Shown here in pieces: positions 1-22,542 of a stretch of 28,070 nt of DNA. Numbering within the stretch: position 1 is the first letter of the stretch; every line of letters begins with the position of its first letter. The notes beneath the pieces are model-generated. The model had not been told where the DNA came from and searched no databases. It saw only the letters and a list, made by a program, of their open reading frames with translations. The stretch lies in the IMG/VR virus record IMGVR_UViG_2695420596_000005, positions 1-28,070 of that record. One strand, 5' to 3'. The translations under genes and the position numbers were made by a program. Source of the DNA: a virus. Lineage: Duplodnaviria > Heunggongvirae > Uroviricota > Caudoviricetes.

Positions 1-609
1 ACCCTGACGGCGCTGGCAGAGCTTGCTACATCAGCAGATAAACTCCCATATTTTACAGGGGCAGATCGTGCCGCGTTAACCGCGTTGACAAGTGTTGGAC
101 GTGCCATTCTTGGTAAAACCAGCACTCAGGGAGTTCTTGATTACCTTGGTTTGGGGGAAGGCTCTGCACTGCCCGTTGGTGTACCTGTTCCGTGGCCCTC
201 AGCCACACCGCCAGCAGGGTGGCTGAAATGTAACGGTGCAGCATTTTCTTCTGAAATGTACCCAAAACTGGCAAAGGCCTACCCCACCAATAAATTACCG
301 GATTTACGCGGTGAATTTATCCGTGGCTGGGATGATGGGCGCGGGGTGGATGCCGGAAGGGGCATCTTAAGCATGCAGGGGTGGTTAACAGGAAGTCATT
401 ATCATAATATTCGGTCATGGGATGCGTGGGATAACACGGTGTTGGTGCCAAATGACAAAGGAGGGGATAGTCTGTTGTCGACAGATAACGCCGTCCGGCA
501 AGGTGCAATTAACGGTAGATTTACCAGTCAATACAGAACGGAATCCTCAGAGGGGAATGAAACCCACCCACGCAATATTGCCTTCAATTATATTGTGAGA
601 ACCGCATAA
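1..609 (+). CDS. Tail fibre protein, 3' portion (5' end off-window): constant region joined to variable C-terminal cassette Sv1
   Basis: Frame 1 is open from nt 1. Translation TLTALAELATSADKLPYFTG...GEGSALPVGVPVPW matches the internal sequence of the full-length fibre at 12506-14119. Ends ...NYIVRTA; stop overlaps the ATG of the next gene (ATAATG at 607-611). Confidence 0.8.
   Translation, partial: TLTALAELATSADKLPYFTGADRAALTALTSVGRAILGKTSTQGVLDYLGLGEGSALPVGVPVPWPSATPPAGWLKCNGAAFSSEMYPKLAKAYPTNKLPDLRGEFIRGWDDGRGVDAGRGILSMQGWLTGSHYHNIRSWDAWDNTVLVPNDKGGDSLLSTDNAVRQGAINGRFTSQYRTESSEGNETHPRNIAFNYIVRTA
134..159. other. hix/gix-like 26-bp recombination site A (TTCTTGATTACC-TT-GGTTTGGGGGAA)
   Basis: Two 12-bp half-sites around a 2-bp core, 10/12 match of the left half to the remembered hixL half-site TTCTTGAAAACC. 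Sequence identity with the inverted cassettes at 1695-1720 and 2134-2159 begins exactly here. Confidence 0.6.
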
Positions 610-1220
610 TGAATAACGCGATATTAAATGATGACCTTATTGCCGTACAGGCAGGAAACATCGTCGTTTATAACTATGATGGTGAGACACGGGAATATAT
701 TTCCGAATCAACTGAATATCTTGCTGTGGGTGTCGGTATTCCGGCAAATTCCTGTTTAGATGCCCCGGGCGCACATAAAGCGGGCTATGCTATCCGCCGT
801 TCGGAGAATTTAAGCTCATGGGAGTATGCGCCAGACCATCGTGGTGAAACCGTCTATAGCACTGACACGGGAAACACCGAAGAAATCACGGCGCTGGGTG
901 ACTACCCGAAAAATACAACCACTATCGCCCCGTTAACACCATACGATAAATGGGATGGTGAAAAATGGGTGACAGATACTGAGGCACAACATCGTGCTGC
1001 AGTAGAAGCGGCAGAAACCAAGCGCCAGTCACTGGCTGATGCGGCAATGGCTTCCATAAGTCTGATTCAGTTGAAGTTGCAGGCCGGGCGGAAGTTGACG
1101 CAGGCAGAAACCACCCGGCTTAATGCCGTGCTGGATTATATAGACGCGCTGAACGCAATGGATATAAACATGGCACCAGATATCAACTTGCCGGAAATAC
1201 CACTGGCAGCAGCCAGTTGA
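609..1220 (+). CDS. Tail fibre assembly protein (P2 gpG / Mu U-like)
   Basis: 203-aa ORF immediately after the fibre gene with overlapping stop/start. Family assignment is by position and remembered similarity of the C-terminal region to tail-fibre assembly chaperones. Confidence 0.8.
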   Translation: MNNAILNDDLIAVQAGNIVVYNYDGETREYISESTEYLAVGVGIPANSCLDAPGAHKAGYAIRRSENLSSWEYAPDHRGETVYSTDTGNTEEITALGDYPKNTTTIAPLTPYDKWDGEKWVTDTEAQHRAAVEAAETKRQSLADAAMASISLIQLKLQAGRKLTQAETTRLNAVLDYIDALNAMDINMAPDINLPEIPLAAAS

Positions 1221-1226
1221 ATATAA

Positions 1227-1703
1227 CTAAGCCGCCCTCACGATATAGTTAAATGCAATATTGCGGGGGCGGGTTTCACTACCACCTGTGTTACCAATAC
1301 TTCCTCGTGAATGAAGCGTTGGTGATGGAATCAAACTCCCTCCTGTATTTGTGGCATCAAGCCCCCTGCCTTGCGTATATGTTTTTTTGAAAATTGTGGC
1401 CAACTCCCATTCATCCTTTGTGTCATATCCATCGTTAGCTACAACAATATGGCGGTGTTTTTCCAACATCCCGTTTTGAATGCTCAATAAAGCGCGTGCC
1501 GCATCAATTCCTCGCCCATCATCCCAGCCACGGATAAATTCACCGCGTAAGTCTGGTAATTTATTGGTGGGGTAAGCCCTTGCCAGTTTTGGGTACTTTT
1601 CAGAAGAAAATGCTGCGCCGTTACATTTCAGCCATCCCGTTGGCGGCGTGGCTGAGGGCCATGGAACGGGCACACCAACGGGCAGTGCAGAGCCTTCCCC
1701 CAA
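1227..1703 (-). CDS. Promoterless alternative tail-fibre C-terminal cassette Sv2 (inverted orientation)
   Basis: No ATG; the frame opens at the recombination site and starts GEGSALPVGVPVPWPSATPP. Its 158 aa are identical to the C-terminus of the fibre at 12506-14119. Confidence 0.65.
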   Translation of the reverse strand: MGEGSALPVGVPVPWPSATPPTGWLKCNGAAFSSEKYPKLARAYPTNKLPDLRGEFIRGWDDGRGIDAARALLSIQNGMLEKHRHIVVANDGYDTKDEWELATIFKKTYTQGRGLDATNTGGSLIPSPTLHSRGSIGNTGGSETRPRNIAFNYIVRAA

Positions 1704-1720
1704 ACCAACGTTTTCATGCT
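1695..1720. other. hix/gix-like recombination site B, inverted relative to site A
   Basis: Reverse complement reads AGCATGAAAACG-TT-GGTTTGGGGGAA; the cassette-proximal half-site is identical to site A. Confidence 0.55.
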
Positions 1721-2199
1721 GCCCTTACGATGTAATTAAACGTAATATTACGAGGACGAATGGTTACATAATTAACCCCATCACCTCGTGAAGGCCCTGC
1801 AAATGAAAAACGGGAAAAGCCTGGTTGGTTAGAAACAATTTGGTCATAGTTATTGATTGAATGACCAGACCCAATGTCGAAATTACCTCCGTAATGAGAA
1901 AAACTTGTACCATCCTGCCCTGAAAGCAGGGTACGTCCCGCATCAATCCCGCGCCCATCATCCCAGCCACGGATAAATTCACCGCGTAAATCCGGTAATT
2001 TATTGGTGGGATAAGCCCTTGCCAGTCTGGGATACATTTCAGAAGAAAATGCTGCACCGTTACATTTCAGCCAGCCCGTTGGTGGTGTTGCTGAGGACCA
2101 CGGAACGGGCACACCAACGGGCAGTGCAGAGCCTTCCCCCAAACCAACGTTTTCGTTTTTATCCCTACCTATACCAACTCTGTATTTTTCACGAAACAA
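1714..2199 (-). CDS. Promoterless alternative tail-fibre C-terminal cassette Sv3 (inverted orientation)
   Basis: Shares the GLGEGSALPVGVPVPW...KLPDLRGEFIRGWDDGRGIDAGR constant stretch and the C-terminal NYIVRAA with the other cassettes, with a divergent middle. No ATG start at the site. Confidence 0.6.
   Translation of the reverse strand: MFREKYRVGIGRDKNENVGLGEGSALPVGVPVPWSSATPPTGWLKCNGAAFSSEMYPRLARAYPTNKLPDLRGEFIRGWDDGRGIDAGRTLLSGQDGTSFSHYGGNFDIGSGHSINNYDQIVSNQPGFSRFSFAGPSRGDGVNYVTIRPRNITFNYIVRAA
2134..2159. other. hix/gix-like recombination site C, inverted relative to site A and direct relative to B
   Basis: Reverse complement reads AAAACGAAAACG-TT-GGTTTGGGGGAA. Confidence 0.55.
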
Positions 2200-2213: not shown

Positions 2214-2813
2214 ATGCAAATTGGCTATATTCGTGTGTCAACAAATGACCAGAACACGGATTTACAACGCAATGCACTGAACTGCGCAGGATGTGAACTG
2301 ATTTTTGAAGATAAAATCAGCGGAACGAAATCAGCCAGACCGGGATTGAAAAAACTGCTCAGAACGCTATCAGAAGGAGATACGCTGGTTGTCTGGAAGC
2401 TGGACAGACTGGGCAGAAGTATGAAACACCTGATCACGCTTATTGAGGAATTGCGGGAAAAAGGTGTTAATTTCCGTAGTCTGACGGACAGCATTGACAC
2501 ATCAACACCCATGGGGCGTTTCTTTTTTCACGTCATGGGGGCTTTAGCCGAAATGGAACGTGAATTAATTGTAGAGCGTACACTGGCCGGGCTGGCAGCA
2601 GCACGCGCACAAGGACGCATTGGCGGACGTCGCCCGAAGTTGACAAAAGAACAACACGAGCAAATAGCGAGGCTGATTAAAAACGGTCATGACAGGAAAC
2701 AACTGGCGATCATTTACGACATCGGCATATCGACGATTTATCGTTATCACCCTGTAGGCGATATACAGGCTGAAGAAACAACCAGGCAGACTCAGGAAAA
2801 TAAAAACCGCTAA
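2214..2813 (+). CDS. Serine DNA invertase (Gin/Hin/Pin/Cin family)
   Basis: MQIGYIRVSTNDQNTDLQRNAL... is the conserved resolvase/invertase N-terminus with the catalytic Ser in the RVST motif; C-terminal HTH. GAGG Shine-Dalgarno upstream of ATG 2214. Adjacent to three inverted 26-bp sites. Confidence 0.9.
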   Translation: MQIGYIRVSTNDQNTDLQRNALNCAGCELIFEDKISGTKSARPGLKKLLRTLSEGDTLVVWKLDRLGRSMKHLITLIEELREKGVNFRSLTDSIDTSTPMGRFFFHVMGALAEMERELIVERTLAGLAAARAQGRIGGRRPKLTKEQHEQIARLIKNGHDRKQLAIIYDIGISTIYRYHPVGDIQAEETTRQTQENKNR

Positions 2814-2833: not shown

Positions 2834-2839
2834 CGTTAA

Positions 2840-3334: not shown

Positions 3335-3340
3335 GACTCC

Positions 3341-6148: not shown

Positions 6149-6396
6149 TGTCTGTATTCCCGCTGCGAAGTGCCGCCCGCTCACGCCAGCTAACCACTTC
6201 GCCGGGAGTCATCATGAAGATTTCGGCGGGCGACCAGTTAAAAATGGTGGCAATATCCGCCACCAGATCTTCGATGTGCTCAAAGCACACCAGGGTGATT
6301 ACGCTGCCGTCTCCTGCACGCTCTTCGCGCCAGAGTCTGGCTCGCTCATAAAATTTACAGCCACAGCGCACAACTGAATAAAATCGCGTGACGACA
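6135..6396 (-). CDS. E' extension in the -1 frame (putative E+E' frameshift product)
   Basis: An overlapping ORF in the -1 frame begins just 3' of an A7 run (T7 at 6396-6402 on the plus strand, codons ATT-AAA-AAA-ATG) at about codon 91 of E and runs to 6135. Confidence 0.45.
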
Positions 6397-6673
6397 TTTT
6401 TTTAATCATCACTTCATCCAGTTGTGGCGAGGTCACGCGAGGCAACAGCGTGAACATGGTATCCGCTTTCAGATTCAGCACATCAGACAGCGACAGACCA
6501 CGCAGGGATCCCGCCTGCTCAATAGCCCCGGTGATCTCCACATATGTGATTTTTTCGGCACCACGCTCAATTGGCCGGGAAAGTTTTACACCACGTTCGA
6601 CAGCCATATCCTCACCTGCCGTCACATCATCCGCTACGGTGTTATTCCGGGTTTCAGTATCGATATTTTTCAT
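6299..6673 (-). CDS. E: Tail assembly chaperone, P2 gpE-like (zero-frame product)
   Basis: 124-aa ORF with AAGGAG Shine-Dalgarno before ATG 6673, in the position between tube and tape-measure genes. Confidence 0.65.
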   Translation of the reverse strand: MKNIDTETRNNTVADDVTAGEDMAVERGVKLSRPIERGAEKITYVEITGAIEQAGSLRGLSLSDVLNLKADTMFTLLPRVTSPQLDEVMIKKMSSRDFIQLCAVAVNFMSEPDSGAKSVQETAA

Positions 6674-6728
6674 CAGTTGTCTCCTTTTCAGTCAGAGGCG
6701 ACGCACTGCGCCGCCTGCATATTACTTA

Positions 6729-7241
6729 TCAGCCAAGCCCGAGCGCGGAACGGATGCGATCGGGCACAATGTCCTTGCCGTCCTTCCGGTAAATGAAGTT
6801 CAGCAGGTCAATCTCCCACAACGGACGATCGTTAACACTCAGCTTGTAGTAGGTGTTTTTAATGGCGTAAGTGTGTGATGTGGCTTCGCCCTGTTTGGCT
6901 TCCCCCATATCAATTTCCGTCACACGTCCGCGCATTTCGACTTCATACAGGTCGCTTTCTGCATCGGTGTAATATTCACCCGCAAAACGCAGCAGCGTGC
7001 CGTCAATCGTGCCGCCATACTTAAGGAACAGCTCACGAACTGCGCCCCCCATGACAAAGCTCGCATCAAGCGCGGAGTCGTCCAGACCGAGATCAATACT
7101 TACCGCCCCCATCATGCCACCACCCCGGTAGCTGTCGGTTTTGCGCGTCAGCTTAGGCAGGGTGACGGACGTCACCTTACCCACTTCGTTTTCACCATCC
7201 ACAAACAGCGTAAAAAAGCGAAGATGTTTTGGCACAGCCAT
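6729..7241 (-). CDS. FII: Tail tube protein, P2 gpFII-like
   Basis: 170 aa, immediately downstream of the sheath gene; size and position match P2 FII. Confidence 0.8.
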   Translation of the reverse strand: MAVPKHLRFFTLFVDGENEVGKVTSVTLPKLTRKTDSYRGGGMMGAVSIDLGLDDSALDASFVMGGAVRELFLKYGGTIDGTLLRFAGEYYTDAESDLYEVEMRGRVTEIDMGEAKQGEATSHTYAIKNTYYKLSVNDRPLWEIDLLNFIYRKDGKDIVPDRIRSALGLG

Positions 7242-8425
7242 CAGGCACCTCCCAGCACCGCAAATGCGGGTTCAAAGTATTCATCAGTAAACGTCTGGTA
7301 AAGCTCCATGTCTTCCAGTGGCGGAACGGGCGTATATTTGTAGCGAATACGCACACGCCCCTGACGTAAATCCGTGGTGCTGTTATCCACCACGTCATAC
7401 CAGCACTCCGCGCCAATCAGTTTCCCGGCAGTCACCAGTGAATCCAGTTTTGCCCTGATGGCACTGATAACATCCTTCACGTTCGCAGGCGTCAGTGGAC
7501 TGTCGATGGTTTCAAACTGCGCTTCCGCAATTGAATCAGCCAGCACCTGTGCGGTTCGGGTATACACCTCAAAGATGTAGGCGTTCGTTTCCGGTGTGCG
7601 GTTGCCCCAGAAGCGGAACCCGTTGCGACGAATAATGGTCGTGATTTCTTTGTTGTTGAGGCTGTTGGCATCGCTGTCTTCGGCCTGCAACGACCAGAAC
7701 ACATGCCTCGACATCCCCAGCACATTTTTAACCGGAACGTTGGACAGTGATTTGTGCCAGCCCTGCTCATGGTCAATGTACGCACGAAGGCCGCACGCAT
7801 AGGCAGGCGCGGGGAACGTTTCGTTTTTGCCACTTTTCGGGTTGTAGGCGATGAAGTCCGGCCATAAGAGCATCACCTCACGTTCGTTGAATTTCTGGCG
7901 GTAGGTAATCGCATCAGCCATCGTGTCACAGCCATGACATGAGGCATACACAAACGCGCGCAGTTTACCCGCAATCACGCACAGGGATTTTGTCACCGCC
8001 TCCGTGTCCAGCTCCGGCGCGGCCAGAATACGCGGACGGTATCCGATGCTTTCATCCTGCTCTGCAACAAGCAGCGCATACATCCCCGTATAGCTGCCGT
8101 CAGATTCAGAACCACCGATAACCAGTTGATCCTGCGTCTTTCCGTCTTCTTCTTTGTGTTCAGCCACGCGAACGACGATCACCTTTGTGCTCACCTGGTC
8201 TGCGATAGCCTTAAGCGCACGATAAAGCGTCCCCGTTGTCCCGCATTTTCCCAGCACGTCATTGACGCGGGTCAGCAGTGTGGGCTTGTTCAGCGGGAAC
8301 AGCTTCGCGTCCGCATCATCCGCCGTTGCCACGATACCGATAACACTGGAATCAACATCATTAATCGCTGTTACCAGGTCGGTATTTTCCGTAACACGGG
8401 CACCATGAAAACGAGTTTCACTCAT
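7241..8425 (-). CDS. FI: Contractile tail sheath protein, P2 gpFI-like
   Basis: Start placed at MSETRFHGARV (ATG 8425, AAGGGG Shine-Dalgarno), giving ~394 aa, close to P2 FI size. The tracked ORF extends upstream to 8599 without a ribosome-binding site. Confidence 0.8.
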   Translation of the reverse strand: MSETRFHGARVTENTDLVTAINDVDSSVIGIVATADDADAKLFPLNKPTLLTRVNDVLGKCGTTGTLYRALKAIADQVSTKVIVVRVAEHKEEDGKTQDQLVIGGSESDGSYTGMYALLVAEQDESIGYRPRILAAPELDTEAVTKSLCVIAGKLRAFVYASCHGCDTMADAITYRQKFNEREVMLLWPDFIAYNPKSGKNETFPAPAYACGLRAYIDHEQGWHKSLSNVPVKNVLGMSRHVFWSLQAEDSDANSLNNKEITTIIRRNGFRFWGNRTPETNAYIFEVYTRTAQVLADSIAEAQFETIDSPLTPANVKDVISAIRAKLDSLVTAGKLIGAECWYDVVDNSTTDLRQGRVRIRYKYTPVPPLEDMELYQTFTDEYFEPAFAVLGGA

Positions 8426-8582
8426 AGCTTCAGCCCCTTGTATCCGTAAAATGATTCGGCAACAATCATCACCCACCACGCGCGTAATCTCACCCCTGCG
8501 CCGTTCTCCCGACCCGGCGACAACAAAAAGCAGTAACCCCCTCCGCACGCACATGCGACCATGCCGCACAGGGAGGGAACAG

Positions 8583-9683
8583 ATGACCGATACCACCATG
8601 CAATTGCTCAGTCAGGGCACAGACCCCGTGAAAATGCCGGATTTTGATATTCTCGCGGAGGGTAAAACGCTGTCAGGCGTGGCAGAGCGCCTGATGAGCC
8701 TGTCACTGACCGACAACCGGGGATTTGAGGCGGACCAGCTCACCATCACGCTGGATGATGCGGATGGTCAGTTGCAGCTACCGCCACGGGGCGCGCGCCT
8801 GACGGTTCTCATTGGCTGGAAAGGAGAACCGCTGACAGAAAAAGGCACTTACATTGTTGATGAAATCGCTCACGAAGGACCGCCGGACAGGCTGACTGTT
8901 TCAGCCAGAAGCGCAGATTTTCGGGATGAATTTAACGTTAAACGTGAGGTGTCCTGGCATGATGTGACCGTTGAGCGCGTGGTATCTGCCATCGCTCATC
9001 GGTACGGTCTGAAACCGCAAATCAGCGAAATACTGATGGATATCGAAATCGACCACGCCGACCAGACCGAAGAAAGCGACATGTCCTTCCTTACGCGCAT
9101 GGCGGAAATGCTGGGCGCAATCACCACGGTAAAAAGCGGTAATCTGTTATTCATCATGCCAGGCGGTCGCGTGAACGCACTGGGCCAGCCGTTGCCATCG
9201 TTCGCCATCACACGCAGCAGCGGCGATCGCCATCAGTTCCGCATTGCTGACCGCGAGGCGTATACGGGTGTACGCGCCTACTGGCTTGATCTTAATTACG
9301 GGAAAAAGAAAAAAGTCAGCGTGAAACGCCGCAAACCGAAAAAAGAGAAAAGCAGCAGCCGTGAAGGTGACTATATGGAAGGTGCGGAAGGCAACGTGTT
9401 TGTGTTACGCAAAACTTATCAGAACGAGCAGGCAGCAAGACGCGCAGCGGCGGCAAAATGGCAGCAGCTACAACGCGGAGCCGCATCATTTTCCATCACG
9501 CTGGCACGTGGACGAGCAGAACTCTACCCCGAAATGCATGGCACGGTAACAGGATTTAAAAGCGAGATTGATAATCAGGACTGGATCATTGCAAAAGCCG
9601 AGCACACCATTGATAACAGTGGCTTTACCACGCAGCTTGAGCTTGAAGCCAAAATCCCGGAATGGATAGCAGAAACAGAGTAA
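8583..9683 (+). CDS. D: Late tail gene D product, P2 gpD-like
   Basis: Start at MTDTTMQLLSQG (ATG 8583) preceded by GGGAGGG Shine-Dalgarno; ~366 aa; lies between FI and the ogr-like gene. Confidence 0.75.
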   Translation: MTDTTMQLLSQGTDPVKMPDFDILAEGKTLSGVAERLMSLSLTDNRGFEADQLTITLDDADGQLQLPPRGARLTVLIGWKGEPLTEKGTYIVDEIAHEGPPDRLTVSARSADFRDEFNVKREVSWHDVTVERVVSAIAHRYGLKPQISEILMDIEIDHADQTEESDMSFLTRMAEMLGAITTVKSGNLLFIMPGGRVNALGQPLPSFAITRSSGDRHQFRIADREAYTGVRAYWLDLNYGKKKKVSVKRRKPKKEKSSSREGDYMEGAEGNVFVLRKTYQNEQAARRAAAAKWQQLQRGAASFSITLARGRAELYPEMHGTVTGFKSEIDNQDWIIAKAEHTIDNSGFTTQLELEAKIPEWIAETE

Positions 9684-9877
9684 ACAACTTAGATGCATTA
9701 GCCCTGACATTTGCTAACGCGCTTACAGCAAGAATCATAACCAATCTGACAGCCTACCCGGTGTCAAAATCAGAAGAGCCTTACATTAGAATATGTTAAT
9801 TTGTAGCAAACAAATTTACACACAAATGATTACTGCTGAAATAGCCCCCATAAATGCCATGTCAAAGGATCCATGTT

Positions 9878-10543
9878 ATGAATATGCAAATTTTTATCGC
9901 ACCAGCAGCCACAGTTGCTGCAGTCTGCCTTGCTGCATATTTTGCTTTACGAAATGAACGTAAAAAGAAAGCACTTGAGATTAGAACAACTCAACTAGAT
10001 CGAATATCTGAGCTAGTAAACCGAGCATCTACCAATTTGATGCAATATACAGGTACTCTTGCCTCTATACTGGAAGCGCACGCCAAAGATAATTATCTAC
10101 CGAACAAAAAATTTGACATTAATGTAATTAGCAAATGGAAAGATTGCCTCGATGAGAGTGAGGTCTGGGCGATTGATATACAGCAACTAAGAACATGTCA
10201 GCACAGTCTGGAGTTTCATCGTGAAAAAGAATGGGCTGAATGGAAAAAAATAATTCCACCATTACTTGATAAAATTAACCAATTTTTTCTCATATCTAAG
10301 CCAGGGCAACCTGTTACGTTTATAAATGGCCAAAACAAAACAGCTGATGAACTACTTGTTTTCTCAAGATATTTGAGAAAACAAACAGCAGAAATTGAAT
10401 CAGTACGTCAGCTGTTACTTTCTCAAATGAGAGAGGAATTCATCGAGTTAACTAGCTTTGAACCTGTCACAATGTTTAGCTTATTTAAATCAATAAAGAA
10501 AAATGTCATGCAATTTTTCTGTATCAGTGCTCTTAAAAATTGA
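9878..10543 (+). CDS. Hypothetical membrane-anchored protein (AT-rich accessory gene)
   Basis: Start MNMQIFIAPAATVAAVCLAAYFAL gives one N-terminal hydrophobic helix followed by a charged ~200-aa domain. The region looks markedly AT-rich by eye. P2 has no gene between D and ogr. Confidence 0.6.
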   Translation: MNMQIFIAPAATVAAVCLAAYFALRNERKKKALEIRTTQLDRISELVNRASTNLMQYTGTLASILEAHAKDNYLPNKKFDINVISKWKDCLDESEVWAIDIQQLRTCQHSLEFHREKEWAEWKKIIPPLLDKINQFFLISKPGQPVTFINGQNKTADELLVFSRYLRKQTAEIESVRQLLLSQMREEFIELTSFEPVTMFSLFKSIKKNVMQFFCISALKN

Positions 10544-10558
10544 CGCTCTGTTGCAAGC

Positions 10559-10581
10559 AACCCCAGTGTTAAACTGGGGTT
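10559..10581 (+). terminator. Hairpin terminator candidate after the accessory gene
   Basis: AACCCCAGT-gttaa-ACTGGGGTT followed by ATTCTTGC. Confidence 0.45.
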
Positions 10582-10692
10582 ATTCTTGCTAAGAGACCTT
10601 TCTACGGCATCAGTAAACAAAACGAACTATCAGTTGGAGTCTGAGCAAGTTCAGCCTAAACTAGCGACAGCACTACGTTAAGGGAGGTCGCT

Positions 10693-10953
10693 ATGTTCCG
10701 TTGTCCGCTTTGTGGCGCATCTGCCCGTATCCGCACCAGTCGTCCGGAAAATGATTCAAACACCGTGCGGCAAAAGTATTACCAGTGTAACAACCTGGAA
10801 TGCGGCGTATGCTTCTCAACACTGGAAGCTTTCCATAAATTCACATCGAAACACGCCTCCGGCATCCACTCTTCAGAAGGTATCCCGTGGCATGAGCTGC
10901 CAGCTTCACACAGGGGAAACAATCAGATGAGCTTGCCTTTACCTCAGAATTAA
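10693..10953 (+). CDS. ogr: Zinc-finger late transcription activator, Ogr/Delta family
   Basis: MFRCPLCGASARIRTSRPENDSNTVRQKYYQCNNLECGVCFSTLEAF: CxxC...CxxxxC arrangement and similarity to P2 Ogr. Strong AAGGGAGG Shine-Dalgarno. Confidence 0.85.
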   Translation: MFRCPLCGASARIRTSRPENDSNTVRQKYYQCNNLECGVCFSTLEAFHKFTSKHASGIHSSEGIPWHELPASHRGNNQMSLPLPQN

Positions 10954-11092
10954 CAGGCAGAATTGCCGGAGTAACAAAAACGCGATAGATTACGCGCGGG
11001 TGCCTTTCGGCTGATGGTCGGAGGGAATACCCGAAGGCCAGATGTGGAAAGGCCCCGGAAAACATCTCTGTTTAACCGAGGCCCTAACCGCA

Positions 11093-12181
11093 TTACCTTG
11101 ACAAGTGAAAGGTTAGCGCCTCTCCGGAAAAGGAGCAAGTGCTTGTATGGGTCCACCACATATTGCAATTTTTATTCTCTTTTAAAATATATTCCACGGG
11201 CGTCATTAGTGCGAGCGCCTTGTGGGGTCTTTTGCTGTTATACAGCACCAGATATTCCGCCAGCTTCTGGTTAAATAGCGCCAGATCTTCAAAGAGTAAA
11301 ATCTCATTAAATTCAATAAACTGCTCTCTTAACGTCCGGTTAAAACGTTCACAGATAGCGTTCATTTTTGGCGTGTAGGGATAGGTCCAGAGGTGTTTGA
11401 TAGCGGCTTCCTGCAGCGTTTTGTCGAAGTTTCCCAGGAACTCTTTTCCGTTATCTGTGATTATCTGGCTGATACCGACCGGGAACAACCGGGCTGCGCG
11501 GCTGAAGAAGTGATTGACGATATCACTGTTGAGTGACGGCACAGCCAGCGCCAGCGCGTAATTGCTGCATTCGTCGATCATGGTGATGACATAGCGACGC
11601 AGTTCGCCCATTCTGAGCTCAATGGCGTCCATCCCAATGAGCTCACCTGTCTTTACCGGGCGGTAGTGCTTTGGCCTGCGGGGTTTGGCAGACCGCTTTT
11701 TGACAAGCAGTGCCTTCCCCCGCGATCCCAGACGCACAGGTATCATCCGCATTTTATCATGTGCGGCAGCGATCATTCTGCCGATGGTGGAAACACTCGG
11801 ACAGGCCAGATAGCGCTGTTCGCACCAGGGCTTCAGGCGAACAAAAATCTGCTCTTTACCGAGGTTCGGCAGCTCTGTCCTGAGGCGTCGAATCTCTTTC
11901 AGCACATCGGGATGCCAGTGTTTTTTTCGTCGCACCAGAGGTGCCTTACTGTGCGGGATTAGCCCCTCAGGTCCTTCCTTGTTCAGTAACTGACGCCACC
12001 AGTAAAGCGTGCGGCAGGACACGCCAAAGGCTTCAGAAGCTGCAGAAATACCGTGTTTATCCCAGAAGTGCAGAGCCTTCATTCTCATTGTTGCTATATC
12101 AGCCATCACTGAAAGCCTCAACGCATAATCGGCCGTTTGGTAGTACTTAGGATAGCCAACCATCAGATGCTGCATTTGCAT
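11093..12181 (-). CDS. DDE transposase (rve/integrase-core), IS481-family-like
   Basis: 362-aa ORF with N-terminal HTH region, ITDNGKEF and YxPxxN...E motifs typical of retroviral-integrase-type transposases. The last few codons probably read through into flanking DNA. Confidence 0.75.
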   Translation of the reverse strand: MQMQHLMVGYPKYYQTADYALRLSVMADIATMRMKALHFWDKHGISAASEAFGVSCRTLYWWRQLLNKEGPEGLIPHSKAPLVRRKKHWHPDVLKEIRRLRTELPNLGKEQIFVRLKPWCEQRYLACPSVSTIGRMIAAAHDKMRMIPVRLGSRGKALLVKKRSAKPRRPKHYRPVKTGELIGMDAIELRMGELRRYVITMIDECSNYALALAVPSLNSDIVNHFFSRAARLFPVGISQIITDNGKEFLGNFDKTLQEAAIKHLWTYPYTPKMNAICERFNRTLREQFIEFNEILLFEDLALFNQKLAEYLVLYNSKRPHKALALMTPVEYILKENKNCNMWWTHTSTCSFSGEALTFHLSR

Positions 12182-12216
12182 AGTGCAATCTCCCCTTACT
12201 TATCCGGAGGCAATTA
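11110..12216 (-). mobile_element. Insertion sequence, IS481-family-like (~1.1 kb)
   Basis: Single DDE transposase ORF. The right boundary is set where identity to the tfa copy at 940-1220 begins (12217/12218). The left boundary is approximate, set from an imperfect terminal inverted repeat (GTTAGCGCCTCTCCGGAAAAGG versus TAATTGCCTCCGGATAAGTAAGG). Confidence 0.6.
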
Positions 12217-12217
12217 A

Positions 12218-12499
12218 CCATACGATAAATGGGATGGTGAAAAATGGGTGACAGATACTGAGGCACAACATCGTGCTGCAGTAGAAGCGGCAGAAACCAA
12301 GCGCCAGTCACTGGCTGATGCGGCAATGGCTTCCATAAGTCTGATTCAGTTGAAGTTGCAGGCCGGGCGGAAGTTGACGCAGGCAGAAACCACCCGGCTT
12401 AATGCCGTGCTGGATTATATAGACGCGCTGAACGCAATGGATATAAACATGGCACCAGATATCAACTTGCCGGAAATACCACTGGCAGCAGCCAGTTGA
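12218..12499 (+). pseudogene. Truncated tail-fibre assembly gene (3' remnant only)
   Basis: Identical to the 3' part of the tfa at 609-1220 from nt ~940 onward; identity starts abruptly at the IS end, leaving the last ~83 codons without the native start. Confidence 0.75.
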
Positions 12500-12505
12500 A
12501 TATAA

Positions 12506-14119
12506 CTAAGCCGCCCTCACGATATAGTTAAATGCAATATTGCGGGGGCGGGTTTCACTACCACCTGTGTTACCAATACTTCCTCGTGAATGAAGCGTTG
12601 GTGATGGAATCAAACTCCCTCCTGTATTTGTGGCATCAAGCCCCCTGCCTTGCGTATATGTTTTTTTGAAAATTGTGGCCAACTCCCATTCATCCTTTGT
12701 GTCATATCCATCGTTAGCTACAACAATATGGCGGTGTTTTTCCAACATCCCGTTTTGAATGCTCAATAAAGCGCGTGCCGCATCAATTCCTCGCCCATCA
12801 TCCCAGCCACGGATAAATTCACCGCGTAAGTCTGGTAATTTATTGGTGGGGTAAGCCCTTGCCAGTTTTGGGTACTTTTCAGAAGAAAATGCTGCGCCGT
12901 TACATTTCAGCCATCCCGTTGGCGGCGTGGCTGAGGGCCATGGAACGGGCACACCAACGGGCAGTGCAGAGCCTTCCCCCAAACCAAGGTAATCAAGAAC
13001 TCCCTGAGTGCTGGTTTTACCAAGAATGGCACGTCCAACACTTGTCAACGCGGTTAACGCGGCACGATCTGCCCCTGTAAAATATGGGAGTTTATCTGCT
13101 GATGTAGCAAGCTCTGCCAGCGCCGTCAGGGTGGCATCCTTCGGTTGCTTACCCGCAAGCGCGTTAGTCATGGTGGTCGCAAAATTCGGGTCATTGCCCA
13201 GCGCCGCAGCCAGTTCGTTCAGCGTGTTCAGTGCATCAGGTGACGAATCTACAAGTGCGGCAATCGCGGCCATAACGAAAGCCGTGCTTGCGATCTGGGT
13301 ACTATTAGTCCCCTGTGGCGCTGTTGGTGTTGTTGGCGTTCCGGTCAGTGCCGGGCTGTTTAATGGTGCTTTCTTGTTCGTTTCATCCATTACCGCCTTA
13401 ACAGCTTTTGGTGTCGCTGCCAGCGTTTCAGACGTGCTGTTCGTGGCGCTACTGAGCTGAACAATTCCTTTTTGTGTAGTGGTGGCGTTCTGGGCGGTAT
13501 ATTTCCCGTTAGCCAGGTCATATGCAGCCTTAACCGCTTTCGGTGTTGCGGCCAGTGTTTCTGATTCACTGTTAATTGCACTGCTTAACTGAGTAAAACC
13601 TTTTACGGTCAGCGAGGCGTCCGGGTGACGTCGTGACTGTTCGTGCTCTGAGATTTTATCATCCACATATTTGCGGGTTGCCAGAACCACAGACGGGTCG
13701 ATTTTCAGCGTGATGGCTTCGGTGTTCGTGACAACCAGAATCATGCGGATAGTCTGGGTGCGTCCACTGCCTTCCTGCAACTGCGGTTTGTACGTTTCCG
13801 GGCAGTTTGCCACCGCAATGAGTACACCTTCATCATCATAAAGACCAATCTCACGGATCCAGAATCCTCCCTCGTTTTCAGGGATGATTTGCTCCGCAAT
13901 AATCTGGCTCTGATTGTTAGGGTCAACACTCAGAAGATTCAGCGGTGCAATGCGTTTCTGGTTAATCAGTTTTGTTTGTGCAGGGTCTGGTGTTGGTAAC
14001 ACACCATTTGCATCACCAACGGCCATTTGCGTCAGATTCAGCTTACTGCCGAGCATCGTCGCGTTAGCCAGTCGTGCCGCGCCCTGATTAGTCAGAATGG
14101 CGTAGTATTTCACTGTCAT
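12506..14119 (-). CDS. H: Tail fibre protein, P2 gpH-like N-terminus with the Sv2 C-terminal domain
   Basis: 537 aa. N-terminal two-thirds similar to remembered P2 H (AVANCPETYKP, EHEQSRRHPDASLTVKGFTQLSS, TPKAVKAVMDETNKKAPLNSPALTGTPT). C-terminal 158 aa identical to cassette 1227-1703. Confidence 0.9.
   Translation of the reverse strand: MTVKYYAILTNQGAARLANATMLGSKLNLTQMAVGDANGVLPTPDPAQTKLINQKRIAPLNLLSVDPNNQSQIIAEQIIPENEGGFWIREIGLYDDEGVLIAVANCPETYKPQLQEGSGRTQTIRMILVVTNTEAITLKIDPSVVLATRKYVDDKISEHEQSRRHPDASLTVKGFTQLSSAINSESETLAATPKAVKAAYDLANGKYTAQNATTTQKGIVQLSSATNSTSETLAATPKAVKAVMDETNKKAPLNSPALTGTPTTPTAPQGTNSTQIASTAFVMAAIAALVDSSPDALNTLNELAAALGNDPNFATTMTNALAGKQPKDATLTALAELATSADKLPYFTGADRAALTALTSVGRAILGKTSTQGVLDYLGLGEGSALPVGVPVPWPSATPPTGWLKCNGAAFSSEKYPKLARAYPTNKLPDLRGEFIRGWDDGRGIDAARALLSIQNGMLEKHRHIVVANDGYDTKDEWELATIFKKTYTQGRGLDATNTGGSLIPSPTLHSRGSIGNTGGSETRPRNIAFNYIVRAA
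12974..12999. other. hix/gix-like recombination site within the H gene (reverse complement identical to site A)
   Basis: TTCCCCCAAACC-AA-GGTAATCAAGAA is the exact reverse complement of 134-159. Confidence 0.55.
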
Positions 14120-14724
14120 GCGTTTACTCTCAGATTATCAATTAAATGAATGGCTGGGGCAGGGAAATAATCCCCTTCGACAATAATGGACTCCGGGGTG
14201 TAGGGATAAACCGTCAGGGCATCGCCGTGATAGCATCCCGTACCAACGAAAATCTTTCCGTTCACACTCAGGCTGATCGCCAGCCCCGTCAGATGGCGAC
14301 TTACTGGTTTTGCATCCGCAATAAGGCGCTCAAGTTCCTGATACATTTCATCGGTGATGCCCTGATCAAGTACTCCGACAACAATGCGAAATGTTCCCGG
14401 TTCCTCGTTGAGTTGCCACCACTCCTTTACTTCAATCAGGTAGCCGAGAGGCTCCACGGCTCTTCGCAGTGCGCTGATGGTCCCTTTGTGTCGGTGTATC
14501 AGCCATGCATCACGAATCACCTGTCGCTTTGTCTCTTCCGGCCAGTTGCGATCCCAGCGGTCAACGGAAAATGCCCAGGCGAGATAAGGCAGCAGATGCA
14601 CCGGGCAGGTGTCCGGCGACCACAGCGTGTTGAGGTCTACCGGAATGTCTGTAATGCGTGTTCCGACGGCTTCGGCACAACGCATGAAATTGCTGGCTGA
14701 TGGTGGTAACAACGAATTACTCAT
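14116..14724 (-). CDS. I: Baseplate protein, P2 gpI-like
   Basis: Start taken at MSNSLLPPSASN (14724); similar to remembered P2 I (LLPYLAWAFSVDRWD, RLIADAKPVSRHL). Overlaps J stop and H start. Confidence 0.8.
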   Translation of the reverse strand: MSNSLLPPSASNFMRCAEAVGTRITDIPVDLNTLWSPDTCPVHLLPYLAWAFSVDRWDRNWPEETKRQVIRDAWLIHRHKGTISALRRAVEPLGYLIEVKEWWQLNEEPGTFRIVVGVLDQGITDEMYQELERLIADAKPVSRHLTGLAISLSVNGKIFVGTGCYHGDALTVYPYTPESIIVEGDYFPAPAIHLIDNLRVNA

Positions 14725-15613
14725 TGCGTCCACCTTCGCTGATGGTGAATGACTCACAGCGCGCCGCCTGTATGTCGCTGATGGCCATATTCTGTGTGGG
14801 TTCGATTATCTCCACGCGTTGCACACCGTGCACATGCAGTGCGGCAGCAATGGCGGACAACGCCACGTCCTGACCGATAAGCCCCTGCTCAGCCAGCCAC
14901 TTCCTGAACGACGATTCAGCCGCGGCCAGAATAGGTTCGGATTCCGGGCCGGGGTAAAAGTACAGTTTTGCATTCAGCCGCCATGTCACGATTCTGGCGC
15001 TCTGTACGGTCAGGCGGTCGGCCACCGGGCGGGTATCCTCTGCATTCAGAACGGCGCGAACGGTATTAAGCAACGCCTCCGTTGCTGTGCCGTCGCCTTC
15101 AGTGGACAGGATGGAAACCGTCACACAGGCCGGAGACGGGCTGATGGCCCGCGCATCACGCACCAGACCGCTGGCGCTGCGTGCAAAATACTCGTATGCA
15201 CCTGACGGACCAGCAACACTCAGGCCGTCATACGCCCGTTGCGCCCGCAATCTCAGCGAGGTGTCACTCTCCATCACCGCGTCGGTGGTATCCGTTGCCG
15301 GAGTGATAACCAGGCGCTTTGTGTTCATATTGCCCGCGAGGTTGTCCAGGTTTGTCCCTGAACCGTGGCTTAACATGCAGGCGCGAGCGCCCTCGTTAAC
15401 CCGCTGGCGTAACAGCATTTCACGAAAAGACATGGTTTGAGCGATAACGTTCAGGGGTTCCGATTCCAGCTCCAGCGCGGCGGAGACGGCTTCACGCTGT
15501 TCGGCAGGATAGGACGCAATCATCATGGCCTTTGTGTCAGCCAGAATTGCCTCAAAATCAGGCTCCGCGATGATGGCGGGTTCCGGTAACTGGGAAAGGT
15601 CAACAGCAGGCAT
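14717..15613 (-). CDS. J: Baseplate assembly protein, P2 gpJ-like
   Basis: 298 aa, between W and I in conserved order. Confidence 0.8.
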   Translation of the reverse strand: MPAVDLSQLPEPAIIAEPDFEAILADTKAMMIASYPAEQREAVSAALELESEPLNVIAQTMSFREMLLRQRVNEGARACMLSHGSGTNLDNLAGNMNTKRLVITPATDTTDAVMESDTSLRLRAQRAYDGLSVAGPSGAYEYFARSASGLVRDARAISPSPACVTVSILSTEGDGTATEALLNTVRAVLNAEDTRPVADRLTVQSARIVTWRLNAKLYFYPGPESEPILAAAESSFRKWLAEQGLIGQDVALSAIAAALHVHGVQRVEIIEPTQNMAISDIQAARCESFTISEGGRNE

Positions 15614-15616
15614 GAT

Positions 15617-15967
15617 TTACTCTCTCAGCGTGATGGTTAATTCAACATTCTGCATGGTCTGCATGACAGTGCCCGACAGCGTCACCCCGGCGCGGCCTCC
15701 TGCCTTCCAGACAACGTCGATAGCGTCCAGGGCAATGCGGGGTTCCCATCGTGTCAGCGCAATCACGGCAGCACTCATGCATTGCAGACGCGTGGTGTTA
15801 TTCATGGGTTCGTCAATCAAATCAGGCACAAGGCTGCCATATTCCCGTCGCATAACCCGGCTTGCCAGCGGGGTGGTCAGGATGTCCCTGACTGACTGTT
15901 TCAGGTGCTCCATATCGTTCAGGTTTCCCGTTCCGTCCGGGTTCATTCCTGTGTAGCGGGTTGTCAC
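15617..15967 (-). CDS. W: Baseplate wedge protein, P2 gpW-like (gp25 family)
   Basis: 116 aa, size and position as P2 W. Confidence 0.75.
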   Translation of the reverse strand: MTTRYTGMNPDGTGNLNDMEHLKQSVRDILTTPLASRVMRREYGSLVPDLIDEPMNNTTRLQCMSAAVIALTRWEPRIALDAIDVVWKAGGRAGVTLSGTVMQTMQNVELTITLRE

Positions 15968-16545
15968 TGCGGGCCTCCTGTCGAATAGCTGCCACCTTTA
16001 ACGCCACCGTGTTTATGCGTATGCACTGTGATGCCGTTTGAGGTGAAATTGCCGCCGCTGTGCGTGATATTGCCGCTCATCTTTCCCCCTTTTGTGACGT
16101 CAAGCGTCGCCGTTCTCAGAAGGTCTGTGCATTCCACGACGGGCGTATCCAGTGTCACGCTGACGGATGCCTGCAGGGTGGCTGTTTTCATGCCGCTAGC
16201 GCTCAGTGCGCCTGCGTCCGCGTCGTAGCGGAACACCGCGCCATCCGGCGCGCTGACCACGATTTCTTTCAGGCTTTTGCCGGGGGCCGGAATAGCATCA
16301 CTCCACAGGCTGCCAATTATCATGGCGGTTTCCGGGTTGCCGCCAATGCAGGCAATTACCACCTGTTCGCCTGGTGATGGCGGCAGCCACACATTGAAGG
16401 CTCCCGCGCGCGTGGTGTTCCAGCGCAGCCAGCCTGTTTCCAGTTCGCCGCTGCGAACGCGCACGCGCCAGGACTTCTCATCAACTTCAGAGATGATCCC
16501 GGTGCGAATGATGTTGCTCAGCAGTCGCATGAGTTCTGCGCTCAC
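15964..16545 (-). CDS. V: Baseplate spike/assembly protein, P2 gpV-like
   Basis: 193 aa immediately upstream of W with overlapping stop/start. Confidence 0.75.
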   Translation of the reverse strand: MSAELMRLLSNIIRTGIISEVDEKSWRVRVRSGELETGWLRWNTTRAGAFNVWLPPSPGEQVVIACIGGNPETAMIIGSLWSDAIPAPGKSLKEIVVSAPDGAVFRYDADAGALSASGMKTATLQASVSVTLDTPVVECTDLLRTATLDVTKGGKMSGNITHSGGNFTSNGITVHTHKHGGVKGGSYSTGGPQ

Positions 16546-16575
16546 CGTACAGCCTCCGCAATCCGGCCCAGCACC

Positions 16576-16692
16576 GTGTTATAAATCAGGCGCTCATCTG
16601 CCTGGCTGATACCCAGCAGCTCACGTACCGGGTATCGCCATCATCGGTATCGGTGATGTCGTCCTCTGCGGGTCCGGGGTTGGTTCTGGCAA
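16576..16692 (-). CDS. Small acidic ORF (38 aa) in the M-V gap
   Basis: ATG at 16692 preceded by CAGGAGTG Shine-Dalgarno; encodes MSMVARTNPGPAEDDITDTDDGDTRYVSCWVSARQMSA. Not in the supplied track (too short). Confidence 0.2.
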
Positions 16693-16803
16693 CCATACTC
16701 ATGGGGTTCACTCCTGAAAAAATCGGGCGGTGGGTGCGCGGTGTAAGCGGTCACGGAGTCAAACCGGAACACCGCGCACGCCGCCCGCTGACGGGGTCAG
16801 TCG

Positions 16804-17604
16804 TTAACCGCGCTTCGCCTTCTGCGTCGCGGTGGTTTTTCGTGTTGCAGGCTTCCGCGTTGTCTTTTTACTTTTGCTGCTTTCGTCCTGCGCCTGCGGT
16901 GTGCTGGCATCTTCTGGTGCGGCTGCGGAATCGGCTTTTTTCAGGGCGCGGGAAAGGGTTGCAATCTCGCGTTTCACACCTGCGTTCGGGTTCAGGTGCA
17001 TTGCTTCGCGCAGCAGCTTCAGTGACAGGGCCATGCTGTCCGCATCACTCAGGCCACGGCGGGCAAAGGCGCACGCTTTGCATAATTTGGCGCGCACTTC
17101 GTCCGGCATGTCCTGGTCGGTGACAATCTCCCGGAGGGTGTCCAGTGGTTCGATAAAGGCGGACAAATCCGCGTCGGCATCCGTCCCGGCCTGCGTCAGT
17201 ACCGGATTACAGATTTCTTCGGTCAGTACCGTGGCAGCAGTACGGCCAAAGTTATCCGGCATGATGAGGTTGTGACGGACCACATACGCACCAATACGCA
17301 ACGCCAGCGGAAGATCGCCACAGTCAATCGCCCACACCATCAGCGTGGCAATCACTTCATCCTGCTGCCCGCCGTCAGCCTCCAGCGTTCCCTCAATCCA
17401 GCCGGAAAAATCCGGCAACAACTCTTTTTTGATGGCGGCTTTCGCGCTTCTGGCCTGTACGCCCTTAAGCCGGGCCTGTGCCAGACGCAGACGATACAGC
17501 ACCTCTTCATGCGCGGTACGCGCGGCGTGGTCCACGCCTTCATTCGCCCGGCCTGCGCGCTGTGCCATCACGTTCTGCCAGTGTTGCTGTGCAGGAGTAA
17601 TCAT
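16804..17604 (-). CDS. M: Terminase small (endonuclease) subunit, P2 gpM-like
   Basis: 266 aa with lysine/arginine-rich C-terminal tail and DMPDEVRAKL motif remembered from P2 M; downstream of the capsid gene. Confidence 0.8.
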   Translation of the reverse strand: MITPAQQHWQNVMAQRAGRANEGVDHAARTAHEEVLYRLRLAQARLKGVQARSAKAAIKKELLPDFSGWIEGTLEADGGQQDEVIATLMVWAIDCGDLPLALRIGAYVVRHNLIMPDNFGRTAATVLTEEICNPVLTQAGTDADADLSAFIEPLDTLREIVTDQDMPDEVRAKLCKACAFARRGLSDADSMALSLKLLREAMHLNPNAGVKREIATLSRALKKADSAAAPEDASTPQAQDESSKSKKTTRKPATRKTTATQKAKRG

Positions 17605-17649
17605 TTTTTCTCTCCGTTACAGGCGGGCATGATGCCCGCCGTGAGTTGA

Positions 17650-18702
17650 TTAGCTGTCGGCGAACTTCAGGCCAGTAACCATCGCGCACTTGCCATAGTC
17701 TTCAACGACATAAGCGTCATTGATGGACTGGTAGGTGGCGATGCGGTTGTATTCCGGCTCGTCTTTCATCAGGCGACGCATTGAACCTTTCTGCCAGTAA
17801 ATCGACAGGTTGTTGAACGAGGTGATCAGCATCGTTGCATCCGGGAAGAACGGTGCAAGGAACACGCCCAGCCCGCCAATGGTGCGCGATGACAGGATGA
17901 GCTGCCCGGCAAGTAATTCCGCATTGGGATTCTGGCCGCTGATGCTGTTCAGCACGGGCAGACGCAGCGAGTTAAACAGGTTGCGCCCCATAATCACCAC
18001 AAGGTCGTCAGCTTCCTTGTGCCATTCATCCAGCAGGGATGAACGCGCGTCCTGTACCAGTGCATCAGCGTTCGCATACTTACCCGCGTGCGCCACGGTG
18101 TTGTCCATGTTGCGGGAGGTCAGCGTCACGTCATTCATAACGCGTTCGCTGGCGTCGGTTCTGATGTGCTCCAGCCATCCCACGTTAACGTCCTGAAGCA
18201 GCTTGTTGGTGCTGAAGTTGGACTCATCCGCGTGAGACGTGCCGTTGAAACCGATCATGATGCGGTCAAGCGCCACCTGCCGGGCAATCTGTGCGCTGAT
18301 GCGGGACTGAAAATCAGGATGTGCCGCCCAGGCATCAAGCTGCGGATATGAAATAAACGTGTCGTAGTTCACCTGTTCGCACTGGTATTTGCGGTTTTTC
18401 AGATCAACCACGTTATTCGGGTTACGGCGTTTTGTGCCGTCATAACCGGTATTCGTGCGTGCAATTGGCCCGGTGGTGTCCAGGAGGATTTTTTCGCCTT
18501 TCTGGTCGGTCACGCCGATCACGTTAATTCTTTTTGTAAATTCGGTGCTTTCCTTTGAGGCGTTTCCAAAACGCTGCTGCACCGAGGGTTCCACGGTAAA
18601 TCGCGATACCAGTGCGGAAACCGGAATATTATTAAGCGACGCCTGCTGCGCCATATAGCAACCCAGCTTGTTGCGGGTAATATCTGACATCACCAGATTC
18701 AT
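17650..18702 (-). CDS. N: Major capsid protein, P2 gpN-like
   Basis: 350 aa; FTVEPSV, IMIGFNG, MLITSFNNLSIYW, YVVEDY motifs align with remembered P2 N. Confidence 0.9.
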   Translation of the reverse strand: MNLVMSDITRNKLGCYMAQQASLNNIPVSALVSRFTVEPSVQQRFGNASKESTEFTKRINVIGVTDQKGEKILLDTTGPIARTNTGYDGTKRRNPNNVVDLKNRKYQCEQVNYDTFISYPQLDAWAAHPDFQSRISAQIARQVALDRIMIGFNGTSHADESNFSTNKLLQDVNVGWLEHIRTDASERVMNDVTLTSRNMDNTVAHAGKYANADALVQDARSSLLDEWHKEADDLVVIMGRNLFNSLRLPVLNSISGQNPNAELLAGQLILSSRTIGGLGVFLAPFFPDATMLITSFNNLSIYWQKGSMRRLMKDEPEYNRIATYQSINDAYVVEDYGKCAMVTGLKFADS

Positions 18703-18725
18703 AAAAAATTTGCTCCTTTGTCTTA

Positions 18726-22514: not shown

Positions 22515-22542
22515 CGCGCTTCGCTTGTCTGCTGCTTCGTCG

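Follow-up and report, generated by a model that had tools for sequence, protein, structure and literature searches.

The 28,070-nt window (the whole stretch of viral DNA that was analysed) contains what a preliminary description took to be a second physical fibre locus frozen by an insertion sequence (IS). We are fairly confident that this "second locus" is instead the same known invertible fibre switch of an Escherichia coli P2-like prophage, represented in two flip states that were joined across a gap; an ordinary assembly artefact, with no physical second locus, is the most likely account. The claim of a frozen locus does not survive the finding of an undetermined base (N) at position 12216, a truncated IS, a contig end next to window base 1, closed genomes that carry one locus only, and published evidence that isomers of this locus coexist in clonal cultures.

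The window covers the opening ~28 kb of CXZG01000006.1 (173,776 bp; assembly GCA_001283165.1), a short-read draft contig built by scaffolding, which it matches at 100% (loci L015 and L028), with record coordinates equal to window coordinates plus 1. The prophage is P88/186-like (Peduoviridae), adjoins ihfA, and resides in an EPEC E2348/69-like E. coli. Over 20,117 nt, the window and the public record differed at a single position:

12216: single-base scaffold gap between the IS and tfa, N in CXZG01000006.1 and A in the window.

Because the deposited base is N, the join is a scaffold gap rather than a sequenced junction. Window base 1 lies 1 nt from the contig end and inside the repeated fibre constant region (Hc), so that the first Hc "copy" (1-182) is simply the terminal 182 nt of a contig. 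The features of the switch and of its apparent second copy are as follows.

1..609, + strand: state-A fibre gene H, 3' end only, with a Collar domain and 100% identity to CP059840.2; made up of the final ~145 nt of Hc fused to cassette Sv1 (146-609).
134..159, + strand: crossover site s1, 26 bp, gix/cix-like, TTCTTGATTACC TT GGTTTGGGGGAA.
609..1220, + strand: tfa, the sole tail-fibre assembly gene, intact, 203 aa, with a Caudo_TAP domain.
1227..1708, - strand: cassette Sv2, a promoterless alternative fibre C-terminus with a Collar domain, identical to 12506-12987.
1695..1720, - strand: crossover site s2, AGCATGAAAACG TT GGTTTGGGGGAA.
1714..2147, - strand: cassette Sv3, promoterless, with a Collar domain; its N-terminal 215 nt have 92% identity to Sv1 and Sv2.
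2134..2159, - strand: crossover site s3, AAAACGAAAACG TT GGTTTGGGGGAA.
2214..2813, + strand: serine DNA invertase, 199 aa, with Resolvase (1.5e-51) and HTH_7 (1.4e-12) domains.
12217..12499, + strand: 3' part of tfa, convergent with H and equal to 938-1220, a Caudo_TAP C-terminal remnant.
12506..14119, - strand: complete fibre gene H in state B, 537 aa, with Hc fused to Sv2 at 12974-12999 and Phage_tail_fib, Phage_fiber_2, and Collar domains.
12974..12999, - strand: crossover site of the second copy (copy B).

Only part of H is present at 1..609, since the draft contig terminates 1 nt to the left of window base 1. The TT GGTTTGGGGGAA portion is common to s1, s2, and s3, s1 is inverted relative to the other two, and the 26-bp sites, imperfect dyads with a 2-bp core, are placed at the boundary between the constant and variable parts of the fibre. 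Homologues of the invertase gene in P88 and E2348/69 are annotated as DNA invertase. The enzyme recombines s1 with either s2 or s3, flipping a ~1.56-kb or ~2.0-kb segment and thereby joining Hc to Sv1, Sv2, or Sv3, which yields four isomers.

This switch has been described experimentally. Goldberg et al. (2014, Genome Med 6:112; PMC4272514) used paired-end sequencing, with PCR confirmation, to demonstrate that four isomers of the locus coexist in single-colony cultures, and they reported three 215-bp inverted repeats there. Their Table S1 lists inversions at NC_011601.1 1891695-1893703 (90±3% forward) and 1892127-1893703 (49±37% forward). Their repeat sequence matches the window, and s1 falls within the 215-bp repeat of that table. 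The P2-like prophage module of E2348/69 (PMC4272514) is the same locus, to which the window is 99.5-100% identical; the two share the 215-bp repeats, the two nested inversions (~2.0 and ~1.56 kb), the three C-termini, and the four isomers. The switch itself in the source isolate does not differ from the E2348/69 module. Elsewhere, that isolate differs from E2348/69 by an extra IS481-family element at ogr/hok and a 2.9-kb deletion of lysis/tail-completion genes.

Serine-invertase fibre switches include Gin/G segment of Mu, Cin/C segment of P1, Pin/P segment of e14, and Min of p15B. They share with this locus a serine recombinase beside the invertible segment, inverted 26-bp imperfect-dyad sites with a 2-bp core at the constant/variable boundary, isomers that break at that core, and an inversion that exchanges the C-terminal, receptor-binding part of the fibre. 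Systems of this type also have a Fis-dependent recombinational enhancer in cis, usually within the 5' portion of the invertase gene. Whereas Mu and P1 have one tfa (U/U') per cassette, this locus has three cassettes and a single tfa; in states B and C, tfa and H are convergent. The R64-type shufflon is alike in that multiple inversions of several cassettes produce alternative C-termini (pilV in R64), but it uses the Rci tyrosine recombinase and 19-bp sfx sites. A tyrosine recombinase was looked for in the module, and its only recombinase is the serine resolvase/invertase (Resolvase plus HTH_7), so that "shufflon" can be applied to this locus only loosely.

The repeats that the preliminary description had proposed to delimit by dot plot are real in the window. 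A direct repeat that it placed at 940-1703 and 12218-12990 was recovered as 938-1711 and 12217-12990 (774 nt, 773 matching), the copies being near-identical with a sole mismatch at 1709/12988. The inverted repeat that it placed between 1-150 and ~12990-13160 does exist, although its outer limit had been set too far: 1-353 pairs with 13132-12780 at 95.2% identity, with an exact core (1-182 with 13132-12951), and the repeat is clipped by the window edge at base 1. With the half-site base predicted by recombination set aside, the 955 nt present in two copies show 0 differences. Copy B matches the Sv2 cassette of copy A exactly as far as the central TT of the 26-bp site, and is therefore the precise product of an s1 x s2 inversion. 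In this respect the earlier account was right: the complete 537-aa H gene with Sv2 on the constant region, its three fibre domains, the convergent tfa remnant, and the arrangement expected after an A-B inversion are all present, and the breakpoint is the core dinucleotide of the crossover site. The results make it probable that one Gin/Pin-type inversion system with three cassettes was assembled in both state A and state B and then mis-scaffolded.

Closed genomes of the lineage contain a single Hc and a single fibre locus, in which window base 1 abuts position 13133, and among themselves they vary at this locus in flip state only: CP059840.2 shows state A and NC_011601.1 state C. Four other assemblies (L012, L013, L014, and L016) have normal state-B loci, in which tfa is intact and convergent and the identical 537-aa H protein is encoded. 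In CP059840.2, window 1-11146 maps to 2271169..2260023 (100%) and window 12780-28070 to 2270817..2295546 (99.9%). These mappings bear on the possibility that two prophages lie tail to tail, with 1-11143 from one P2-like prophage and 12217-28070 from a related one that has the fibre module in common and owes its truncation to a deletion or inversion mediated by an IS. At first sight the gene order, with convergent late-gene arms on either side of the IS, suits such an arrangement, and E2348/69 does have another P2-like prophage in which a separate invertible locus is found (PMC4272514). Both arms, however, belong to one prophage in the closed genome and overlap at Hc, the segments in common are identical, against a divergence of 3-5% among related P88-like phages, the IS end is missing, and the junction is an N. 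Our first reading of two diverged prophages was rejected on the basis of the common prophage and the identical shared parts, and the tail-to-tail arrangement is now very improbable.

We consider it similarly far-fetched that the tfa-3'/Sv2 piece (12217-12990) came from a paralogous fibre module of another prophage and was merged by the assembler through sequence identity. E2348/69 has a second place that matches tfa 880-1240, and contigs of four unrelated assemblies begin at 937-939 in this tfa, a hint of a recurrent boundary; however, a contig also began at an arbitrary control position (1046), which leaves the boundary signal weak, and most other tfa paralogues are merely ~85% identical. State B of the same locus accounts for the piece without an extra locus.

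The preliminary description had the tfa remnant severed precisely at the right IS end. We compared filled and empty sites to define the element, and its end lies elsewhere.

11144..12215, - strand: IS481-family element at the ogr/hok site, with rve and HTH domains.
Expected continuation of the IS right end into hok: GGCAATTGCAATATCTCTGTGAACTTACACAGTGCTATGTCG.

The transposase open reading frame (11093-12181, - strand) runs 51 nt beyond the left end of the IS into the flank. The left inverted repeat is kept, but the last 24 nt of the element, which form the right inverted repeat, and the adjoining target-site duplication (TSD) and hok flank are absent. The true right end, GCAATATCTCTGTGAACTTACACA followed by the TSD GTGCT, was found in 11/11 comparator loci (AH19B041 and 10/10 others). 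An exact look-up of the transposase gave 10/10 matches in an ihfA-hok-IS-ogr context, the query being biased to this site with its last 17 codons in the flank; the result is therefore not taken as a sign that the IS is single-copy. In the window, the left flank of the IS is the ogr/hok site with GTGCT, and the right flank is the 3' part of tfa. When both flanks were compared, no target-site duplication was found at the tfa side, and tfa is whole at 609-1220; an intact IS terminus was likewise absent from the tfa junction, the IS stopping at 12215. A transposase could not have made such a junction, as the right inverted repeat is missing, and the breakpoint, being 24 nt inside the IS, is not IS-mediated. 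The segment 12217-12499 is the end of a second contig piece and not an IS-truncated gene. An inversion between one IS in tfa and another at ogr/hok was also considered and rejected: it predicts the order Sv3-Sv1-tfa5'-IS-hok with no intact tfa, yet tfa is intact, and the missing right inverted repeat excludes it as well.

The join at 12216 could also be real, through partial duplication of the prophage or through tandem duplication of 938-12215 and a subsequent flip by the invertase, so that the IS-proximal breakpoint abuts a second tfa-3'/Sv2/Hc copy and a second fibre gene is locked in the Sv2 state. The scaffolder did link both ends across the N, the tandem duplication would put graph branch points at both of the observed contig ends, and the identity of the copies suits a recent event. 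A junction covered by reads, however, would have been assembled through without an N, and the breakpoint within the IS, the presence of just one locus in closed genomes, and the junction's absence from all other public sequences searched also weigh against a real join, which we regard as unlikely. Taken literally, moreover, the scaffold requires >15 kb of the prophage left arm to be duplicated in inverted orientation, yet the contig continues as unique sequence for ~145 kb more. With N as a wildcard, the junction sequence had no other match in IMG/VR, JGI metagenomes, or GTDB representatives, none of the complete E. coli genomes searched spans it, and exact-protein look-ups of possible junction open reading frames (83, 57, and 93 aa) gave no second assembly with the junction. 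An independent Logan contig, ERR124658_58, assigned to the source isolate by the shared 2.9-kb deletion and 100% identity, ends at window 12958. The crossover site there occurs three times, and this is where the 31-mers specific to its Hc side run out; the end is therefore uninformative on mixture versus duplication.

That the scaffold is correct, and the isolate carries a partial inverted or tandem prophage duplication, is quite improbable. If it were so, the second fibre gene would be permanently H-Sv2, without a usable tfa, beside a copy that still switches, and the invertase could turn over the entire block of tail genes by way of the inverted copies of Hc with its site, which are separated by ~13 kb. 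With a single mis-scaffolded locus, the ~13-kb inversion and the direct-repeat deletion for which the earlier account saw substrates are moot, as both rest on a second locus.

The preferred reading of one locus assembled twice supposes that the culture was a mixture of isomers when it was sequenced. Piece 1 (window 1-12215) would represent state A, with the Hc end, Sv1, tfa, Sv2', Sv3', the invertase, the tail genes, ogr, and the IS, and piece 2 (12217 onward) would carry the end of state B, with the 3' part of tfa, Sv2', Hc', and the remaining prophage. The scaffolder may then have set the two pieces end to end with piece 1 flipped, leaving the single N as an unclosed gap; conjecturally, the flip arose from read pairs of inverted isomers pointing to the reverse of the piece end. 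We infer that the isomer mixture and the repeat-rich fibre modules caused this particular mis-scaffold. The join has a gap character, and the duplicated sequence, which lies at contig ends, occurs only once in closed genomes of the lineage. Mis-scaffolded invertible regions in short-read drafts look alike, with contig ends inside an inverted repeat, a segment present twice, one N, and a junction absent from closed genomes. Velvet puts a gap of minimum size for negative distances, and GapFiller reduces unclosed gaps to 1 N; a single-N convention was searched for in the GapFiller and gapFinisher papers and is not documented there. The preliminary description had named misassembly of the copies, or repeats that differ on alignment, as what would undo it; the evidence points to the former, whereas the repeats do match.

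Some points speak against an artefact. A scaffolder needs some pair links between the pieces that it joins, no invertase isomer sets the reversed tail-gene block beside Hc, and a recent real duplication would likewise yield identical copies. Piece 1 also breaks off with 24 nt of the IS still to come. Its overlap with Hc is ~183 nt, beyond any plausible k-mer; a k-mer-overlap signature was looked for at the contig end, and the exact overlap of 182-183 nt fits no usual k.

The biological weight of the finding is small, the switch having already been described experimentally for this very prophage. The N rendered as a base in the window concealed the one telltale character, and comparison of a candidate junction with the deposited record and with closed genomes of the lineage settles such cases quickly. 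Actively inverting segments exist as mixtures of isomers in culture, and short-read drafts may therefore display one segment twice, which then resembles a "fossil" duplicate locus, a truncation by an IS, or a giant inverted repeat.

The window represents a prophage of the P88/186-like group (Peduoviridae), in which the genes usually run from heads and baseplate through I, H, the invertible fibre cassettes, and the invertase to a convergent tail block, followed by D, ogr, and hok. When the window was compared with itself, a direct repeat of 774 nt (938-1711 and 12217-12990) was found with its sole mismatch at 1709/12988, as expected from the preliminary description of a duplicated 3′ part of the tail-fibre assembly gene (tfa) plus the fibre C-terminal cassette Sv2. 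The proposed inverted copy of the fibre constant region (Hc) was also present (1-353 against 13132-12780; 95.2% identity, exact over the first 182 nt), but its right limit lies at 13132 rather than ∼13160.

Features and crossover sites of the window
134-159, plus strand, crossover site s1
609-1220, assembly gene tfa (Caudo_TAP)
1227-1703, minus strand, Collar-domain cassette
1695-1720, minus strand, crossover site s2
1714-2199, minus strand, Collar-domain cassette
2134-2159, minus strand, crossover site s3
2214-2813, invertase (Resolvase and HTH_7)
11093-12181, minus strand, rve-type transposase
12506-14119, minus strand, fibre gene H, complete, 537 aa (Phage_tail_fib, fibre repeats, and Collar domain)
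12974-12999, minus strand, site identical to s1, in the second copy of the fibre module

The three 26-bp sites are gix/cix-like and share the half-site TT GGTTTGGGGGAA. Identity between the second copy and the Sv2 cassette of the first ends exactly at the central TT of the site, with the mismatch, at 1709, falling on the first base of the outer half-site, where the sites differ. On the basis of this breakpoint, H (12506-14119) is a precise s1 × s2 inversion product, confirming that the fusion of Sv2 to the constant region arose by A-B inversion. The identical H protein was found in ordinary state-B (Hc-Sv2) loci of four other assemblies, with an intact convergent tfa next to it. Three defining features of a Gin/Cin/Pin-type switch are present, namely a serine invertase, 26-bp sites where the constant and variable regions meet, and documented isomers, and we take the system to work like those of Mu (Gin/G), P1 (Cin/C), e14 (Pin/P), and p15B (Min). 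The R64-type shufflon, in contrast, uses a tyrosine recombinase; because the recombinase here is not of that family, this switch is not such a shufflon.

This switch is a known one, and the same locus was studied in E2348/69 by Goldberg et al. 2014 (PMC4272514), with inversions of NC_011601.1 1891695-1893703 (90±3% forward) and 1892127-1893703 (49±37% forward) listed in Table S1, three 215-bp repeats, and four PCR-confirmed variants with three alternative C-termini that coexist in single-colony cultures. The sequence of those repeats matches the window. Because isomers coexist in culture, short-read data of such a culture necessarily hold both the Hc-Sv1 and the Hc-Sv2 junctions.

In E2348/69, window 1-11146 corresponds to CP059840.2 2271169..2260023 (100%) and 12780-28070 to 2270817..2295546 (99.9%); the arms overlap in one constant region only, and base 1 abuts 13133. 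CP059840.2 is in state A (Hc-Sv1), whereas NC_011601.1, in which 143-2147 is inverted, represents state C. An origin from two different prophages is very improbable, as the window maps to a single prophage and the shared parts are identical. We likewise consider it highly unlikely that a paralogous fibre module was merged in, a reading supported solely by another tfa match in E2348/69 and by a weak tendency of contigs to start at 937-939.

The window matched contig CXZG01000006.1 (173,776 bp) of GCA_001283165.1 at 100% identity, with record coordinates equal to window coordinates plus 1, so that the window starts one base from the contig end, within the repeated constant region. Over 20,117 bases the two differed at a single position, 12216, exactly between the IS481-family element (IS) and the tfa remnant: the record has N there, the window A. 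Because the N lies exactly at this join, the junction was never sequenced across, and the join is a scaffold gap. The substituted A makes an apparent TAA stop and masks the gap. The junction occurred in no complete E. coli genome when all were searched and, with N as a wildcard, nowhere else in IMG/VR, the JGI metagenomes, or the GTDB representatives.

The limits of the IS were set by comparing the empty site (E2348/69 and P88) with filled sites (AH19B041 and 10 further loci); the element reads TGTATGGG...ACTTACACA, and the ogr/hok boundary carries a 5-bp duplication, GTGCT. The copy in the window begins at 11144 but ends at 12215, 24 nt short of the right inverted repeat, so the statement that tfa is truncated precisely at the right IS end does not hold. 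Exact IS termini are what a transposase joins; the truncation was therefore not made by the IS. An exact-protein look-up recovered the 362-aa transposase in ihfA-hok-IS-ogr contexts alone, but it is biased to this site because the ORF extends 51 nt past the left IS end into the flank. At 11093-12215, this ORF meets no stop codon within the IS and crosses the left inverted repeat to enter the ogr-hok spacer. E2348/69 itself lacks the IS, which in many unrelated E. coli lies at the identical site of their P88-like prophages, immediately before the hok start codon and with target duplication GTGCT. A real rearrangement, either a partial duplication or a tandem duplication of 938-12215 plus a flip, would account for the link and both contig ends, but a junction covered by reads should not appear as N, and this one is unique to this draft and cannot be IS-mediated; we regard such an event as unlikely.

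With the IS end missing, an N at the join, a contig end in a repeat, and a single locus in closed genomes, the second, IS-frozen fibre locus proposed for 11110-14119 is best not counted as a real feature, although the inversion product was correctly recognized; the window probably holds no second locus. The results most likely reflect one invertase-driven, three-cassette fibre switch that was assembled in two states, with the pieces glued by scaffolding. State A would have come out of the assembler in piece 1 (1-12215) and state B in the terminal part of piece 2 (from 12217 on), after which scaffolding would have joined the two pieces across the unresolved gap. We infer the software route: conjecturally, read pairs of inverted isomers might tie the left arm to the reverse of the end of piece 1 at a negative distance, which the scaffolder may have rendered as a minimal gap. 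An artefact gives no account of piece 1 being flipped, ending 24 nt before the IS end, and overlapping Hc by ∼183 nt.

Elsewhere in the prophage, an IetA (AAA ATPase, 360 aa, 3.6e-89)/IetS (S8 peptidase, 734 aa, 6.6e-41) anti-phage defence pair lies at 23019-26302 (minus strand), between the portal gene and the replication region, and is also carried by the E2348/69 prophage. The gpD-ogr slot, which looks like a hotspot of variable cargo or defence genes, differs in its cargo gene from lineage to lineage (window 9854-10543, plus strand; ∼5600-7300 in loci L018-L027 of public assemblies). Here it encodes a protein of 221-229 aa that matched nothing in Pfam or PADLOC; elsewhere the slot is filled by PIN_4 (500 aa), DUF3800, HxsD with two radical-SAM proteins, or unknown proteins of 381-384 aa. 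Among tfa carriers, bases 1-19 of metagenome contig L011 (ERZ27238370 k111_2230) are Nextera adapter AGATGTGTATAAGAGACAG, untrimmed in the public assembly.

In the source prophage, 2,877 bp are deleted at 16629-16637 relative to E2348/69 and to four further prophages that are nearly identical; the deletion extends from gpL codon ∼25 to the gpS 3′ end, between short direct repeats GAT[A/T]ACCCG. It took out gpX, holin, endolysin, LysB/C, R, and most of S, and a fusion ORF of 38 aa is left. This loss makes the prophage defective, yet the fibre switch is kept. The three alternative fibre C-termini (1227-2147 included) share the single tfa chaperone gene (609-1220), which is convergent with H in states B and C. 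Either tfa is dispensable for Sv2 and Sv3 fibres, or it is expressed independently.
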